The notes under the pieces: generated by a model
Told to the model about the DNA's origin: nothing
Databases searched by the model: none
Seen by the model: only the letters and a program-made list of their open reading frames with translations
IMG/VR virus record: IMGVR_UViG_2681813262_000009
DNA: 6,279 nt
Direction: 5' to 3' (one strand)
DNA from: a virus
Taxonomy: Duplodnaviria; Heunggongvirae; Uroviricota; Caudoviricetes
Shown here: piece after piece, positions 1-6,279 of the stretch
Position numbering within the stretch: position 1 is the first letter of the stretch
How the letters are laid out: every line of letters starts with the position of its first letter
Program-made: the position numbers and the translations under genes

Positions 1-29
1 CAACTGGATATTTTTACAGTATTAAGCAT
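1..29 (-). CDS. 5' end (first ~9 codons, MLNTVKISS...) of a DNA methyltransferase gene; the gene body continues leftwards beyond the window
   Basis: Bases 1-29 are identical to 4063-4091, which is the N-terminus of the 3462..4091 minus-strand ORF carrying a DPPY motif. Whether this copy is intact cannot be seen. Confidence 0.5.
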
Positions 30-61
30 GGATCATTAAGCCTGTCTCTGATAGGCTCATT

Positions 62-80
62 CTGCTTTTGCGCAAAGCAG
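62..80. promoter_or_regulatory. Imperfect palindrome ctgcttttgcgcaaagcag about 35-50 bp upstream of the methyltransferase start; possible operator
   Basis: 7-bp arms ctgcttt/aaagcag around a tgcgc core, seen in the sequence. Function is inferred only. Confidence 0.2.
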
Positions 81-121
81 TGGGCCTGAGGTTTGCTTGT
101 GAACCCAACGCATGAGCAGAT

Positions 122-152
122 GGCTGGTGGGTGCCCCTAACACCCACCAGCC
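122..152. repeat. Perfect 12-bp inverted repeat with 7-nt loop (ggctggtgggtg-cccctaa-cacccaccagcc)
   Basis: Exact reverse-complement arms seen in the sequence. No U-tract follows on either strand, so it is not a classical intrinsic terminator. It lies between the small-ORF terminator and the methyltransferase start. Confidence 0.5.
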
Positions 153-168
153 GCCCATTTACCACAAA

Positions 169-193
169 TAAAAAAGCCTTCACTGCGGAAGGC
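169..193 (-). terminator. Rho-independent terminator after the 65-aa ORF
   Basis: Minus strand reads GCCTTC-CGCAGT-GAAGGC followed by TTTTTTA. The stem contains the ORF stop codon TGA. Confidence 0.55.
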
Positions 194-377
194 GTCTGTA
201 ACAACCGAACTGATAGTCTGCCAGACCCGCCATAACCAGCTGGGTCAGTATTAACTGGCAGCGTTCGCGTGAAAGGTAAGTATTCTGCGCTATCTCCCCG
301 ACTGTCGCCGGTTCGGTAACGCTTAATTCATTAAACACCACTCTGGCGGTTTCTGTCATATCCTGCTGTTTTAGCAT
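180..377 (-). CDS. Hypothetical 65-aa protein, possibly a small winged-helix/HTH-like DNA-binding protein
   Basis: ORF track MLKQQDMTE...RRLPQ. ATG at 375-377 is preceded by AAGGA with ~6-nt spacing. It is identical in both repeat copies and followed by a terminator. The HTH guess rests on the helix-turn-helix-like stretch TVGEIAQNTYLSRERCQLILTQLVMAGL and is inference. Confidence 0.45.
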   Translation of the reverse strand: MLKQQDMTETARVVFNELSVTEPATVGEIAQNTYLSRERCQLILTQLVMAGLADYQFGCYRRLPQ

Positions 378-495
378 GTCTTTTCCTTTTCCGGTTAACG
401 TGACACACCAATAACTCTTGTCGAAAAAGCCAGCAAGCTGAAAGACAGGTATTCACCGCCACCAGCGCGTTTACTGTACTGACGCGATTTCAGTC

Positions 496-521
496 ATAAA
501 AAACCCGCTCGGCGGCGGGTT
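496..521 (-). terminator. tR'-like rho-independent terminator ending a short pR' transcript
   Basis: Minus strand reads AACCCGC-CGCCGA-GCGGGTT followed by TTTTAT, about 65 nt downstream of the predicted pR' start. Confidence 0.65.
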
Positions 522-553
522 GTAGAAACTCTTCTAACGTCAGGCATAAAACG

Positions 554-596
554 CCCATCGTTATGACGAATTTACCACAGATTCCGGAAAAATCAA
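554..596 (-). promoter_or_regulatory. Sigma70 late promoter resembling lambda pR' with a -10-like pause element; the Q-utilisation site is expected here
   Basis: Minus strand: -35 TTGATT (plus 591-596), 16-bp spacer, -10 TAAATT (plus 569-574), 6 nt, then AACGATGGG (plus 562-554). As I recall it, lambda pR' has the same TAAATT -10 followed by AACGATGGG. It sits immediately downstream of the Q-like gene. Confidence 0.6.
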
Positions 597-601
597 CCTT
601 G

Positions 602-1423
602 TTACCTAGTTACCTTTTTTAACTGCCGCTCAGCCCATGCTTCTTCAATATCAAACCGGGTCACCAGCGCATCATAAAATTTCTTAACTGTTTTTTCCCA
701 TGACGCGCGTGTTATCTGGTTTGTCACCTCGCATATAGCATTAAATGCCTCCGTTGATGGTAGTCTTTCATAGCCACGACCACCACAACGCTGGCAGTCT
801 CTGATAACAGGCATACCACGTTTTACCGACTCTTCACGATGAATGGCGACACCACGCCCACGGCAATCCTTACAGGCGGTGGAAACCTCACCCTTTCCGC
901 CACACTCCGGACAGGCAACTTTTACCACCTCCCTGACTTTTTTCCATTCTTCCCAGTAAGACGGATACACACCTTTCGTACACTTTGCCCATACCGGCGG
1001 CTTACCATCCGGATACTGGACCTTGTTTGTAAAAACTACGCTTTCAATAAATTTTTCCCCATAGCAACAAGGGCACTGCTTTTTACTCGCTGCGCTGCGG
1101 GCATAATCCTCAAAAGCGTACGAAGCCATAATGCGCATCACTACCGGTTTTATTTCTGCCGGAAGTTTTCTCAACGCCGCCACACGATCGCACCGACTGA
1201 GTGCATAATCTGCCAGTAATTCTGTTGCCCGCGCCCTGTCATTCATACTGATGCCCATTTTCCCCAGGAACGCAGAAAACCCCATCTCAGCCCGATTCTG
1301 TGTCATGCCCTGCGCGGCCATCACATCAGTGATACTCAGCGCATCTTTTGACGTTGAGGCCGATGCATCGGTCAGGCAAGGGGATTTTGGGGAGTAGTAT
1401 TTCGGTAAATCTTCCAGTTTCAT
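602..1423 (-). CDS. Phage antitermination protein Q (long Q family of enterobacterial lambdoid prophages), 273 aa, cysteine-rich
   Basis: ORF track. Position is immediately after rusA and immediately before a pR'-like promoter/terminator. Contains CxxC motifs (CPCC, CPECGGKG, CKDCRGRG, CQRCGGRG) suggesting zinc binding. N- and C-terminal sequence resembles what I recall of prophage Q homologues. Start overlaps the rusA stop (ATGA). Confidence 0.75.
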   Translation of the reverse strand: MKLEDLPKYYSPKSPCLTDASASTSKDALSITDVMAAQGMTQNRAEMGFSAFLGKMGISMNDRARATELLADYALSRCDRVAALRKLPAEIKPVVMRIMASYAFEDYARSAASKKQCPCCYGEKFIESVVFTNKVQYPDGKPPVWAKCTKGVYPSYWEEWKKVREVVKVACPECGGKGEVSTACKDCRGRGVAIHREESVKRGMPVIRDCQRCGGRGYERLPSTEAFNAICEVTNQITRASWEKTVKKFYDALVTRFDIEEAWAERQLKKVTR

Positions 1424-1794
1424 TTTTTGACCTGCTCTTCATGCATTATGGGGTAAATCTTCACCCCCAGACGTCCACCAGATACTGGCTGACCACGAAC
1501 GATATTGATTTCATCAAACTGCTCATCGTCCATTAACACTCCCGCATGTGTCAGTGCATCCAGTGGTGCTTTCAGGATATTGTCCAGGTCACGACGGCGC
1601 TTATCCGGTGGCTCTGCAATAATCTTTATCGCCAGTCTTCCGGACAGGCTTAATTTCAGTCGCTGCTGACGGACAATAAGCGCCACATCCCGGCGATAAC
1701 GCTCACCGGCTTTTGATACAAAATATGTGTTGTCACGACGTCGCCAGTAAGTATTCACCGTCGGCGGATAAGGTAAAATAAACTCATGGCGCAT
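1420..1794 (-). CDS. rusA: RusA-family Holliday-junction resolvase (crossover junction endodeoxyribonuclease), 124 aa
   Basis: ORF track. The motif PDKRRRDLDNILKAPLDALTHAGVLMDD matches the conserved RusA catalytic region (PDRRRRDLDN...DAL). Translationally coupled to both neighbours. Confidence 0.85.
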   Translation of the reverse strand: MRHEFILPYPPTVNTYWRRRDNTYFVSKAGERYRRDVALIVRQQRLKLSLSGRLAIKIIAEPPDKRRRDLDNILKAPLDALTHAGVLMDDEQFDEINIVRGQPVSGGRLGVKIYPIMHEEQVKK

Positions 1795-2051
1795 CAGCGC
1801 AGCACCTCCTGCACCAGTTTTTCAAACTTTCCGACTCTGGTTTCCAGCTCTGCCACACAGTCCACCAGCTCATCTACTGCTTTCTGTGCGCGATGCTTCG
1901 CCTGCATCAGTTCCCGAAGCGCGGGTACCATATCTTTACGGATAGCGTCTTTTGTTATGCCCGTTTTTTCGAGTTGTTCAGCATGACGCAGCATTTCCTG
2001 CGCGTGTTTACGCAATTGTTCAGGGGTAAAAGTCATTGTCTGGTTGTTCAA
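1794..2051 (-). CDS. Hypothetical phage nin-region protein (85 aa from TTG at 2051, or 80 aa from ATG at 2036), predicted helical
   Basis: ORF track. Stop overlaps the rusA start (TGATG). GGAG lies 9 nt upstream of the TTG. An in-frame stop at 2067-2069 prevents any further upstream extension. Confidence 0.55.
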   Translation of the reverse strand: MNNQTMTFTPEQLRKHAQEMLRHAEQLEKTGITKDAIRKDMVPALRELMQAKHRAQKAVDELVDCVAELETRVGKFEKLVQEVLR

Positions 2052-2171
2052 AAGAAACGCTCCATCTTACTGCTGTCAGTTCGTTTATTACTGTATCTGC
2101 GCGGATTGCCGGGCTTCATGGGAGTGGAAAGCACCCGTGCACTTTCCTGGTCCACAGGCAGAAAATGTCCG

Positions 2172-2212
2172 TAGACTGGCCCCCTGAATCTCCAGACAAC
2201 CAGTATCACTTA
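2172..2212. repeat. IS2 left terminal inverted repeat (IRL)
   Basis: Imperfect match to the reverse complement of 3462-3502 (shared ...TTCCAGACA...TATCACTTA). Confidence 0.85.
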
Positions 2213-2262
2213 AATAAGTGATAGTCTTAATACTAGTTTTTAGACTAGTCATTGGAGTACAG

Positions 2263-2628
2263 ATGATTGATGTCTTAGGGCCGGAGAAACGCAGACGGCG
2301 TACCACACAGGAAAAGATCGCAATTGTTCAGCAGAGCTTTGAACCGGGGATGACGGTCTCCCTCGTTGCCCGGCAACATGGTGTAGCAGCCAGCCAGTTA
2401 TTTCTCTGGCGTAAGCAATACCAGGAAGGAAGTCTTACTGCTGTCGCCGCCGGAGAACAGGTTGTTCCTGCCTCTGAACTTGCTGCCGCCATGAAGCAGA
2501 TTAAAGAACTCCAGCGCCTGCTCGGCAAGAAAACGATGGAAAATGAACTCCTCAAAGAAGCCGTTGAATATGGACGGGCAAAAAAGTGGATAGCGCACGC
2601 GCCCTTATTGCCCGGGGATGGGGAGTAA
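2263..2628 (+). CDS. insC: IS2 OrfA (InsC), 121 aa, HTH transposase N-terminal component
   Basis: ATG at 2263 preceded by GGAG. Protein [29 protein letters not shown]... The ORF track's extended 136-aa start at 2218 is upstream of this site. Confidence 0.9.
2580..2586 (+). other. Programmed -1 ribosomal frameshift heptamer A AAA AAG joining orfA to orfB
   Basis: aaaaaag at 2580-2586 lies in the orfA frame (GCA AAA AAG TGG), and orfB is in the -1 frame overlapping here. This is the classic IS3-family arrangement. Confidence 0.8.
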
Positions 2629-3491
2629 GCTTAGTCAGCCGTTGTCTCCGGGTGTCGCGTGCGCAGTTGCACGTCATTCTCAGACGAACCGATGACTGGA
2701 TGGATGGCCGCCGCAGTCGTCACACTGATGATACGGATGTGCTTCTCCGTATACACCATGTTATCGGAGAGCTGCCCACGTATGGTTATCGTCGGGTATG
2801 GGCGCTGCTTCGCAGACAGGCAGAACTTGATGGTATGCCTGCGATCAATGCCAAACGTGTTTACCGGATCATGCGCCAGAATGCGCTGTTGCTTGAGCGA
2901 AAACCTGCTGTACCGCCATCGAAACGGGCACATACAGGCAGAGTGGCCGTGAAAGAAAGCAATCAGCGATGGTGCTCTGACGGGTTCGAGTTCTGCTGTG
3001 ATAACGGAGAGAGACTGCGTGTCACGTTCGCGCTGGACTGCTGTGATCGTGAGGCACTGCACTGGGCGGTGACTACCGGCGGCTTCAACAGTGAAACAGT
3101 ACAGGACGTCATGCTGGGAGCGGTGGAACGCCGCTTCGGCAACGATCTTCCGTCGTCTCCAGTGGAGTGGCTGACGGATAATGGTTCATGCTACCGGGCT
3201 AATGAAACACGCCAGTTCGCCCGGATGTTGGGACTTGAACCGAAGAACACGGCGGTGCGGAGTCCGGAGAGTAACGGAATAGCAGAGAGCTTCGTGAAAA
3301 CGATAAAGCGTGACTACATCAGTATCATGCCCAAACCAGACGGGTTAACGGCAGCAAAGAACCTTGCAGAGGCGTTCGAGCATTATAACGAATGGCATCC
3401 GCATAGTGCGCTGGGTTATCGCTCGCCACGGGAATATCTGCGGCAGCGGGCTTGTAATGGGTTAAGTGATAACAGATGTCTGGAAATATAG
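2586..3491 (+). CDS. insD: IS2 OrfB (InsD), transposase catalytic (DDE) component, 301 aa; normally made as an OrfAB fusion by frameshifting
   Basis: ORF track [14 protein letters not shown]...[14 protein letters not shown]..., in the -1 frame relative to orfA. Confidence 0.9.
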
Positions 3492-3502
3492 GGGCAAATC
3501 CA
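3462..3502. repeat. IS2 right terminal inverted repeat (IRR)
   Basis: The reverse complement TGGATTTGCCCCTATATTTCCAGACATCTGTTATCACTTA pairs with IRL. Confidence 0.85.
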
Positions 3503-4091
3503 AGGCACTGAACCAGTGCGACACCATGTTTTTCTTTCCTGTGGCATCTGCAATCTGTTTTGCCGTTATCCCCAGGGCCGCGCGCGCATCACGAAAGTAA
3601 GAAATCAGCGGGGCCATCACATGCTGTTTCAGTGCACTGCCCTTCGCCGCATACCCGGCATCTTTCGGACGATACGGCCCCTGATAATGTTCCGCGAACA
3701 GAATGCGCTCTGTGGCGGGGAAATACGCCCGCAGGCTTTCCTTGTTGCATCCGTTCCAGCGTCCGGACGGCTTCGCCCAGATAATATGGTTCAGCACACT
3801 GAAGCGTTCACGCATCATGATTTCGATATCAGATGCCAGGCGATGACCACAGAACAGGTAAAGACTTCCGGCAGGTTTCAGCACCCGCCAGAACTGCGCC
3901 AGACACTGGTCCAGCCACTTCAGGTAATCATCGTCGCCCTTCCACTGGTTATCCCAGCCCTCAGGCTTCACTTTAAAGTACGGCGGGTCCGTGACTATCA
4001 GGTCAACAGAATTTTCGGGTAACGACCGGATAAATTCCAGGCAGTCGGCGTTGATTAACTCGCAACTGGATATTTTTACAGTATTAAGCAT
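3503..4091 (-). pseudogene. Beta-class DNA methyltransferase (N6-adenine/N4-cytosine type, DPPY motif) truncated after codon 196 by IS2
   Basis: ORF 3462..4091 has DLIVTDPPYF at residues 30-39. Only the first 196 codons are non-IS sequence; the last 13 codons and the stop come from the IS2 right end. The C-terminal region expected to bind SAM is absent. Confidence 0.8.
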
Positions 4092-4123
4092 GGATCATTA
4101 AGCCTGTCTCTGATAGGCTCATT

Positions 4124-4142
4124 CTGCTTTTGCGCAAAGCAG
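4124..4142. promoter_or_regulatory. Copy 2 of the imperfect palindrome upstream of the methyltransferase start
   Basis: Identical to 62-80. Confidence 0.2.
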
Positions 4143-4183
4143 TGGGCCTGAGGTTTGCTTGTGAACCCAACGCATGAGCAGAT

Positions 4184-4214
4184 GGCTGGTGGGTGCCCCT
4201 AACACCCACCAGCC
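4184..4214. repeat. Copy 2 of the perfect 12-bp inverted repeat with 7-nt loop
   Basis: Identical to 122-152. Confidence 0.5.
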
Positions 4215-4230
4215 GCCCATTTACCACAAA

Positions 4231-4255
4231 TAAAAAAGCCTTCACTGCGGAAGGC
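4231..4255 (-). terminator. Rho-independent terminator after the 65-aa ORF (copy 2)
   Basis: Identical to 169-193. Confidence 0.55.
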
Positions 4256-4439
4256 GTCTGTAACAACCGAACTGATAGTCTGCCAGACCCGCCATAACCA
4301 GCTGGGTCAGTATTAACTGGCAGCGTTCGCGTGAAAGGTAAGTATTCTGCGCTATCTCCCCGACTGTCGCCGGTTCGGTAACGCTTAATTCATTAAACAC
4401 CACTCTGGCGGTTTCTGTCATATCCTGCTGTTTTAGCAT
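4242..4439 (-). CDS. Hypothetical 65-aa protein (copy 2), identical protein to 180..377
   Basis: Start taken as the ATG homologous to copy 1 (4437-4439). The ORF track's 94-aa form (to 4526) arises only because a 2-bp indel at about 4446 brings an upstream ATG into frame. Confidence 0.45.
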   Translation of the reverse strand: MLKQQDMTETARVVFNELSVTEPATVGEIAQNTYLSRERCQLILTQLVMAGLADYQFGCYRRLPQ

Positions 4440-4558
4440 GTCTTTTTCCCTTTTCCGGTTAACGTGACACACCAATAACTCTTGTCGAAAAAGCCAGCAA
4501 GCTGAAAGACAGGTATTCACCGCCACCAGCGCGTTTACTGTACTGACGCGATTTCAGT

Positions 4559-4584
4559 CATAAAAAACCCGCCAGGCGGCGGGG
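4559..4584 (-). terminator. tR'-like terminator (copy 2) with a different stem-loop sequence
   Basis: Minus strand reads CCCGCC-GCCT-GGCGGG followed by TTTTTTAT. The stem differs from copy 1 but keeps a GC stem plus U-tract. Confidence 0.65.
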
Positions 4585-4617
4585 TGTAAAAAATCTTCTA
4601 ACGTCAGGCATAAAACG

Positions 4618-4660
4618 CCCATCGTTAGAGCAAATTTACCACAGATTCGGGAAAAATCAA
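4618..4660 (-). promoter_or_regulatory. pR'-like late promoter with pause element (copy 2)
   Basis: -35 TTGATT (4655-4660), 16-bp spacer, -10 TAAATT (4633-4638), then AACGATGGG (4626-4618) are all conserved although the surrounding bases differ from copy 1. Confidence 0.6.
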
Positions 4661-4665
4661 CAACA

Positions 4666-5484
4666 CTATCGCGTTACCCTCTTTAACTGCCGCTCCGCCC
4701 ATGCCTCTTCAATGTCAAACCGAACCACCAACGTATCGTAAAAGCGTTTCACTGATTTTTTCCACGTATCAAGCGTGATAGCACTCGTCACTTTGCATAT
4801 GGCATTAAATGCCTCCGTTGATGGCAGCCTTTCACAGCCACGACCACCACAACGCTGGCAGTCTCTGATAACAGGCATACCACGTTTTACCGACTCTTCA
4901 CGATGAATGGCGACACCACGCCCACGGCAATCCTTACAGGCGGTGGAAACCTCACCCTTTCCGCCACACTCCGGACAGGCAACTTTTACCACCTCCCATT
5001 TTTTCCATTCTTCCCAGTAAGACGGATACACACCTTTCGTACACTTTGCCCATACCGGCGGCTTACCATCCGGATACTGGACCTTGTTTGTAAAAACTAC
5101 GCTTTCAATAAATTTTTCCCCATAGCAACAAGGGCACTGCTTTTTACTCGCTGCGCTGCGGGCATAATCCTCAAAAGCGTACGAAGCCATAATGCGCATC
5201 ACTACCGGTTTTATTTCTGCCGGAAGTTTTCTCAACGCCGCCACACGATCGCACCGACTGAGTGCATAATCTGCCAGTAATTCTGTTGCCCGCGCCCTGT
5301 CATTCATACTGATGCCCATTTTCCCCAGGAACGCAGAAAACCCCATCTCAGCCCGATTCTGTGTCATGCCCTGCGCGGCCATCACATCAGTGATACTCAG
5401 CGCATCTTTTGACGTTGAGGCCGATGCATCGGTCAGGCAAGGGGATTTTGGGGAGTAGTATTTCGGTAAATCTTCCAGTTTCAT
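4666..5484 (-). CDS. Phage antitermination protein Q (copy 2), 272 aa; variant allele with a one-residue deletion and a diverged C-terminal ~55 aa
   Basis: ORF track. Identical to copy 1 over most of its length, with KKVREVV changed to KKWEVV and about 12 substitutions in the last ~55 residues. Confidence 0.75.
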   Translation of the reverse strand: MKLEDLPKYYSPKSPCLTDASASTSKDALSITDVMAAQGMTQNRAEMGFSAFLGKMGISMNDRARATELLADYALSRCDRVAALRKLPAEIKPVVMRIMASYAFEDYARSAASKKQCPCCYGEKFIESVVFTNKVQYPDGKPPVWAKCTKGVYPSYWEEWKKWEVVKVACPECGGKGEVSTACKDCRGRGVAIHREESVKRGMPVIRDCQRCGGRGCERLPSTEAFNAICKVTSAITLDTWKKSVKRFYDTLVVRFDIEEAWAERQLKRVTR

Positions 5485-5855
5485 TTTTTGACCTGCCCTT
5501 CAAGCATTATGGGGTAAATCTTCACCCCCAGACGTCCACCAGATACTGGCTGACCACGAACGATATTGATTTCATCAAACTGCTCATCGTCCATTAACAC
5601 TCCCGCATGTGTCAGTGCATCCAGTGGTGCTTTCAGGATATTGTCCAGGTCACGACGGCGCTTATCCGGTGGCTCTGCAATAATCTTTATCGCCAGTCTT
5701 CCGGACAGGCTTAATTTCAGTCGCTGCTGACGGACAATAAGCGCCACATCCCGGCGATAACGCTCACCGGCTTTTGATACAAAATATGTGTTGTCACGAC
5801 GTCGCCAGTAAGTATTCACCGTCGGCGGATAAGGTAAAATAAACTCATGGCGCAT
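5481..5855 (-). CDS. rusA: RusA-family Holliday-junction resolvase (copy 2)
   Basis: ORF track. Differs from copy 1 at two C-terminal residues (PIMLEGQVKK versus PIMHEEQVKK). Confidence 0.85.
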   Translation of the reverse strand: MRHEFILPYPPTVNTYWRRRDNTYFVSKAGERYRRDVALIVRQQRLKLSLSGRLAIKIIAEPPDKRRRDLDNILKAPLDALTHAGVLMDDEQFDEINIVRGQPVSGGRLGVKIYPIMLEGQVKK

Positions 5856-6112
5856 CAGCGCAGCACCTCCTGCACCAGTTTTTCAAACTTTCCGACTCTG
5901 GTTTCCAGCTCTGCCACACAGTCCACCAGCTCATCTACTGCTTTCTGTGCGCGATGCTTCGCCTGCATCAGTTCCCGAAGCGCGGGTACCATATCTTTAC
6001 GGATAGCGTCTTTTGTTATGCCCGTTTTTTCGAGTTGTTCAGCATGACGCAGCATTTCCTGCGCGTGTTTACGCAATTGTTCAGGGGTAAAAGTCATTGT
6101 CTGGTTGTTCAA
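5855..6112 (-). CDS. Hypothetical phage nin-region protein (copy 2)
   Basis: Identical to 1794..2051. Confidence 0.55.
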   Translation of the reverse strand: MNNQTMTFTPEQLRKHAQEMLRHAEQLEKTGITKDAIRKDMVPALRELMQAKHRAQKAVDELVDCVAELETRVGKFEKLVQEVLR

Positions 6113-6232
6113 AAGAAACGCTCCATCTTACTGCTGTCAGTTCGTTTATTACTGTATCTGCGCGGATTGCCGGGCTTCATGGGAGTGGAAAGCACCCGTG
6201 CACTTTCCTGGTCCACAGGCAGAAAATGTCCG

Positions 6233-6279
6233 TAGACTGGCCCCCTGAATCTCCAGACAACCAGTATCACTTAAATAAG
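6233..6279 (+). mobile_element. IS2 left end (first 47 bp), truncated by the window edge
   Basis: TAGACTGGCCCCCTGAATCTCCAGACAACCAGTATCACTTAAATAAG is identical to 2172-2218 and sits at the same junction with the flanking prophage DNA. Confidence 0.9.

Follow-up and report, generated by a model that had tools for sequence, protein, structure and literature searches.

The window, the whole stretch of 6,279 bp that we analysed, is an entire draft WGS record (GCA_001259655.1 / CXEJ01000285.1) in reverse complement. Its minus-strand gene content is that of a lambdoid prophage nin/Q module, and a complete insertion sequence, IS2, lies within it on the plus strand. A direct repeat with a unit of approximately 4.06 kb occurs about 1.5 times in the window, with 97.3% identity between positions 1-2217 (copy 1) and 4063-6279 (copy 2), and the scaffold both starts and ends in the repeated segment. 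We refer to related draft contigs from IMG/VR (L012-L017) and to sister drafts from NCBI (L021-L023) as the lineage. The features are as follows.

1-29, minus strand: start (10 codons) of copy 1 of a phage N6/N4 DNA methyltransferase gene, at the record end; identical to 4063-4091
180-377, minus strand: hypothetical 65-aa gene between Q and the methyltransferase gene, copy 1 (open reading frame list; same place in the SF-088 and NCTC86 prophages)
602-1423, minus strand: antiterminator Q, 273 aa, lineage allele (c1, with the Qin-like 3' end); Pfam Antiterm, E = 6e-55
1420-1794, minus strand: rusA Holliday-junction resolvase gene, allele ending MHEEQVKK (Pfam RusA; translation)
1794-2051, minus strand: hypothetical 80-85-aa gene downstream of the helicase gene (open reading frame list; hypothetical in VL7S7 and SF-088)
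2048-2171, minus strand: final 41 codons of the prophage replicative DNA helicase gene, which IS2 interrupts; 100% identity to the VL7S7 helicase gene over this 3' end
2172-3502, plus strand: complete IS2 (IS3 family), 1331 bp, 99.7% identical to K-12 IS2A and IS2I, with orfA and orfB domains
3503, no strand: scaffold-gap N, A in the window (public record; methyltransferase homology begins at 3504)
3504-4091, minus strand: 5' 588 nt (196 codons) of a DNA methyltransferase gene, NCTC86-type, the left part of piece B (Pfam N6_N4_Mtase)
4573-4835, no strand: tract of about 55 substitutions, copy 2 (NCTC86/SF-088 type) relative to copy 1 (per-site table; BLAST of the patch)
4998, no strand: second scaffold-gap N, A in the window, in place of TGAC in copy 1; gives an apparent 272-aa Q
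4999-6231, minus strand: piece C, with the 5' part of Q, rusA ending MLEGQVKK, the hypothetical gene and the 3' end of the helicase gene; lineage-type by its identities
6232-6279, plus strand: start of an IS2 left end (IRL), 48 nt, at the record end, with the same left-junction flank

In the intact prophages of E. coli SF-088, NCTC86 and VL7S7 the order is helicase, hypothetical gene, (DUF968), rusA, Q, hypothetical 65-aa gene, methyltransferase and tRNAs. The window shares this gene order, and its genes have high identity to those of the three prophages. It differs from them in that DUF968 is absent, IS2 interrupts the helicase gene and the methyltransferase contig runs only to codon 196.

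The window and the public record differ at exactly two positions, 3503 and 4998, where the record has N and the window has A. Around 3503 the public record reads ...caaatccaNggcactg... (also given as ...ggggcaaatccaNggcactgaacc...), and around 4998 it reads ...cacctcccNttttttcc.... The record is a scaffold of three pieces, A (1-3502), B (3504-4997) and C (4999-6279), with gap characters at both disputed joins. Each gap character sits at a repeat boundary: the first follows the last base of IS2, and the second lies inside 4836-5031, a 196-bp stretch that is identical in both allele classes described below. The N at 4998 produces a false 3-bp deletion in the second copy of Q (272 aa versus 273 aa). 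Because the two Ns were rendered as A, both the 272-aa Q and the IS2 flank 'aggca' are artefacts; an earlier note on this DNA had given aggca as the 5 bp to the right of the IS2 right end (IRR), and its first base is the N at 3503. The 272-aa Q and a 209-aa truncated methyltransferase are called as genes in L020, yet both are missing from the exact-protein index, which is thus incomplete. Exact-protein look-up of the copy-2 rusA matched CXEJ01000285.1.

The three pieces fall into two allele classes, as judged from nucleotide identity.

1-2171 (piece A): 99.8-99.95% to lineage contigs, 93.7% to the NCTC86 prophage
3504-4997 (piece B): 96.1% to lineage contigs, 99.87% to the NCTC86 prophage (2 mismatches in 1,494, no gaps)
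4999-6231 (piece C): 99.8-99.9% to lineage contigs (L021, L023, L014 and L016), 93.2% to the NCTC86 prophage

The points at which the allele class switches coincide exactly with the two Ns. About 50 sites separate piece B from the lineage allele. Among these are methyltransferase positions 3579 and 3582, which are C and G in the window, NCTC86 and SF-088 and A and T in lineage contigs. The TC indel at 4447 is likewise NCTC86-type in piece B, which aligns to NCTC86 without gaps. One candidate explanation for the divergence of copy 2, a short gene-conversion patch within a duplicated unit, was set aside because all of piece B matches NCTC86, including the TC indel and positions 3579 and 3582. 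At position 4062 the window has a private G, in contrast to the A of every relative and E. coli allele compared; this base directly precedes 4063, the position to which record position 1 maps. The private G probably reflects either a contig seam or a second methyltransferase allele in the genome. Taken together with the mapping of the record start to 4063, it points to a second, different methyltransferase copy in the same genome.

Two variants of the rusA 3' end, MHEEQVKK and MLEGQVKK, occur within this one record (positions 1436 and 1442 versus 5497 and 5503; T/T and C/A). The MHEEQVKK form is found in the IMG/VR relatives and the MLEGQVKK form in the NCBI sister drafts. The presence of both implies two copies of the backbone in the genome, or a mixed sample.

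The exact 273-aa Q protein is very common. The two Q alleles of the window differ in a sharply bounded tract (509-771 versus 4573-4835) that extends from about residue 217 to the C-terminus of Q and a further 93 nt downstream, the stretch in which the late promoter and qut site are expected. The methyltransferase-linked module of the lineage carries the Qin-like 3' end of Q, and most methyltransferase-linked E. coli prophages carry the other allele. The pattern suggests that the C-terminus of Q and its target site may have been exchanged together.

The insertion sequence is complete, as the earlier note had stated: its 1331 bp at 2172-3502 have canonical termini and both open reading frames. 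The termini, TAGACTGG...CAAATCCA (IRL and IRR), are identical to those of K-12 IS2A and IS2I; orfA matches Pfam HTH_Tnp_1 and orfB matches Pfam rve/rve_3 (DDE). An A6G -1 frameshift motif, AAAAAAG, is located at 2580-2586. In length, termini, orfA and orfB, A6G site and sequence identity, this copy is thus like IS2A and IS2I of K-12. It differs from them in its flanks. IS2 is reported to generate 5-bp direct repeats (PMC3299598), and the K-12 copies, read against the same termini as controls, have perfect 5-bp duplications (ATTAC/ATTAC for IS2A and GTTAT/GTTAT for IS2I), in line with the expectation that IS2 normally duplicates 5 bp of its target. The window copy as scaffolded has GTCCG on the left and (N)GGCA on the right; the right side is an N join, and the flanks may come from different copies. 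A 5-bp duplication is the mark of a simple insertion event, not of the identity of the element. The second IS2 of the record consists of 48 nt of IRL only, at the contig end.

The left flank, GTCCG at 2167-2171, lies inside the helicase gene. Over the 124 nt that precede IS2, the window and the E. coli VL7S7 prophage are 100% identical, and the uninterrupted target in that prophage reads AAAATGTCCG followed directly by TTATAAAAACG. The exact left junction (J1), GTCCG followed by TAGACTGG, is present with more than 200 nt of identical flank in L012-L017 from IMG/VR and in the NCBI sister drafts L021-L023 (9-10 related draft contigs). This confirms, to the base, the gtccg reported earlier to the left of IRL. 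The same report had described the left flank as DNA upstream of the operon of the hypothetical gene, rusA and Q; the location stands, and the DNA is in fact the last 41 codons of the helicase gene. Four of the contigs with J1 (L014, L016, L021 and L023) have an uninterrupted methyltransferase gene at the site in question.

J1 was found in none of 5,426 complete E. coli genomes. Junction queries of 160 bp for J1 and for the right junction (J2) gave no spanning match in complete E. coli genomes, PLSDB or INPHARED. Exact 25-30-mers of the junctions had no match among GTDB representatives, where the J2 pattern included the artefactual A at 3503. On the evidence of the shared, base-exact sequence, J1 is a real junction and reflects an old insertion fixed in the lineage. 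The lineage is probably Shigella-like and missing from the collection of complete genomes, since J1 occurs in none of the 5,426.

The situation at the right end is different in kind. J2 is the join of IRR, CAAATCCA, to the methyltransferase sequence GGCACTGAACC. In every best-matching allele the methyltransferase homology starts at 3504, not at 3503. Uninterrupted methyltransferase genes read ...CACTGAC(C/T) followed by GGCACTG, and piece B begins one base past this site, which is polymorphic (C or T) between two methyltransferase allele classes. Because 3503 is N and the homology runs only from 3504, the right junction is a scaffold join, not read sequence. The earlier identification of the right flank as the interior of the methyltransferase gene is essentially right, from 3504 onwards. 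The last base of contig A is exactly the last base of IS2; we read that as the mark of a collapsed multi-copy repeat with differing right flanks. Two explanations for an odd base at 3503, an extra base from the IS2 minicircle spacer (PMC3299598) and a point mutation in the target repeat, were dropped, as the base is an N.

J2 was not found in the 5,426 complete E. coli genomes, and with 0-8 unspecified bases allowed at the join it had no match in IMG/VR or JGI metagenomes. The reciprocal junctions, IRR followed by GTCCG... and ...GGCA followed by IRL, were absent from the related contigs searched. Predicted junctions of IRR with GTCCGTTAT(A/G)AAAACG and of ...GGCA with IRL had no match in IMG/VR. 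The two flanks of the window IS2 map 2,729 bp apart in one prophage module of the sister contig L016. The claim that the element has no target duplication and that its flanks come from different prophage positions therefore describes the scaffold correctly; it would hold for the genome only if the right junction, an N join and not sequence, is real.

We lean, with moderate confidence, towards an explanation in which a single collapsed multi-copy IS2 served to connect J1 with the methyltransferase contig, and the apparent array is a walk through paralogous prophage modules. The element is an ordinary complete IS2 that entered the replicative helicase gene of a lambdoid prophage, 123 nt ahead of its stop codon, and this GTCCG insertion is fixed in the lineage. 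The apparent right junction is a one-N join of the last IS2 base to a separate contig carrying the NCTC86-type methyltransferase 5' part. The two flanks would then belong to two different IS2 copies, which would account most simply for the missing 5-bp duplication, the scaffolder and gap-filler having threaded both flanks through the collapsed element. The second N would likewise chain the NCTC86-type contig back to lineage-type Q and rusA, and the 1.5-unit tandem array would be a path through paralogous modules rather than an established genomic repeat. We infer several IS2 copies in this genome, an assembly from short reads and a join made in silico. The analysis itself shows both Ns, the allele class of each piece, that J1 is shared and that J2 is unique.

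Arguing for the scaffold join, the joined pieces derive from different paralogues, as seen in the identities of A, B and C and in the same chaining in L013, L015 and L017. The record resembles a repeat-induced mis-join from short reads, with single-N joins at the IS end and in the 196-bp stretch shared by paralogues, and with chaining in relatives. It differs from a plain mis-join in that a link made by the scaffolder implies some real proximity. Scaffolders normally require several read pairs to link contigs. Some IS2 IRR end is thus probably near the methyltransferase fragment, because the scaffolder linked them, and this counts against an artefact. Also counter to an artefact, the coexistence of the two rusA variants (T/T and C/A at 1436/1442) suggests that the backbone is really present twice. 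Assemblers break at shared sequence, and homologous recombination in vivo happens there too. The coincidence of Ns and allele switches is therefore compatible with a genuine recombinant as well.

Alternatively, the scaffold may be correct, with one physical IS2 bridging both sites as a result of homologous recombination between two directly oriented IS2 copies. This is the main rival, plausible but rather less probable than the first reading. One parent would be the lineage-fixed GTCCG insertion and the other an insertion in the methyltransferase gene, and the reading covers duplication by unequal crossover. Tandem duplication and amplification bounded by IS elements arise by unequal crossing-over between directly repeated IS copies, and the window resembles such a case in having an IS with hybrid flanks between same-orientation copies of a 2.7-kb segment. 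The flanks map to one module of the sister contigs, 2,729 bp apart, and their order and orientation fit a duplication joint. J1 is ancestral and J2 is private to the record, as would be expected for a derived event; the record holds two backbone rusA variants, and the scaffolder joined the IS2 end to piece B.

Counter to this, the IRR junction is an N, not sequence, and a search of relatives for the expected reciprocal junction gave no match. Over 1.5 kb the copies belong to different alleles, at odds with an IS-bounded duplication: piece B, 99.87% NCTC86-type, lies about 50 sites from the lineage allele (3579 and 3582 included), and pieces A and C are lineage-type. The units are therefore not identical by descent, which weakens the tandem array by unequal crossover proposed in the earlier note. 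The node boundary at 3504 and the private G at 4062, at the mapping point of the record start, imply a second methyltransferase copy, and the outer IS2 copies lie outside the record. If IS2 copies did recombine, a simple unequal-crossover array is less likely than a fusion of two different lambdoid prophage modules, or than a duplication in which an NCTC86-type phage later replaced 1.5 kb or more. As for the claim that this IS2 is a recombinant junction and not a simple insertion, the element as drawn is indeed not a simple insertion, and on its IRR side the draft scaffold is joined through an N.

A very improbable third reading is one-ended IS2 transposition, in which the cleaved IRR of the GTCCG IS2 attacks the methyltransferase site on a sister chromatid or neighbouring prophage and would produce, in a single step, a duplication or fusion with neither a target repeat nor a second parental IS2; it agrees with IRR being the exclusive donor end in the asymmetric first step of IS2 transposition (PMC3299598) and with a conserved IRL junction beside a novel IRR junction, but nothing favours it over homologous recombination, and it meets the same objections, namely that the junction is an N and that piece B is of another allele.

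IS2, recombination joints between IS copies and repeat-induced scaffold joins are all already well known, and we claim no novelty for any of them. The useful outcome is to correct the earlier claim: the base on which it rested is an N, and at the junction the scaffold has a gap. More generally, when an IS in a short-read scaffold shows no target duplication, this does not testify to recombination, since its sequence is a consensus across every copy and the pairing of its flanks is inferred. The finding thus serves mainly as a caution about draft scaffolds, here one whose two gap Ns became A in the window, including the crucial flank base. If the join were real, the record would add one case to the known reshuffling of defective lambdoid prophages by IS elements, here in an enterobacterial lineage rich in them. 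Such reshuffling is well documented and involves no new mechanism.

Under the scaffold-join explanation, the related scaffolds deserve comparison with the window. L013, L015 and L017 chain M-type, D-type and third (92%) Q-rusA modules through single Ns. In L015 the module is present 1.5 times, and its copies are joined by an N without an IS2 between them. Another N of L015 follows IS2 nucleotide 821, so this single N conceals at least 510 bp. Beyond the J1 IS2 on its right side, L013 and L015 both have an N, after which come the interior of the third Q gene (92%-type) and then rusA and DUF968. In these relatives too, then, the remainder of the helicase gene is not placed to the right of the J1 IS2, because both scaffolds continue into the third Q.

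In L013 (2232-2425) and L016 (1-68) the IS2 at the GTCCG site is itself interrupted, after IS2 nucleotide 159, by unrelated sequence. An opposite-strand frame in the interrupting sequence ends ...LNIKGESYRLKEKRKAGV..., which may resemble the C-terminus of IS21-family IstB. In the orientation of the window, the first approximately 70 nt of L021 and L022 are identical (GGGAAAAATATCATCAGATGGCTGC...), and their contexts then diverge; this shared start is probably the edge of another repeated element.
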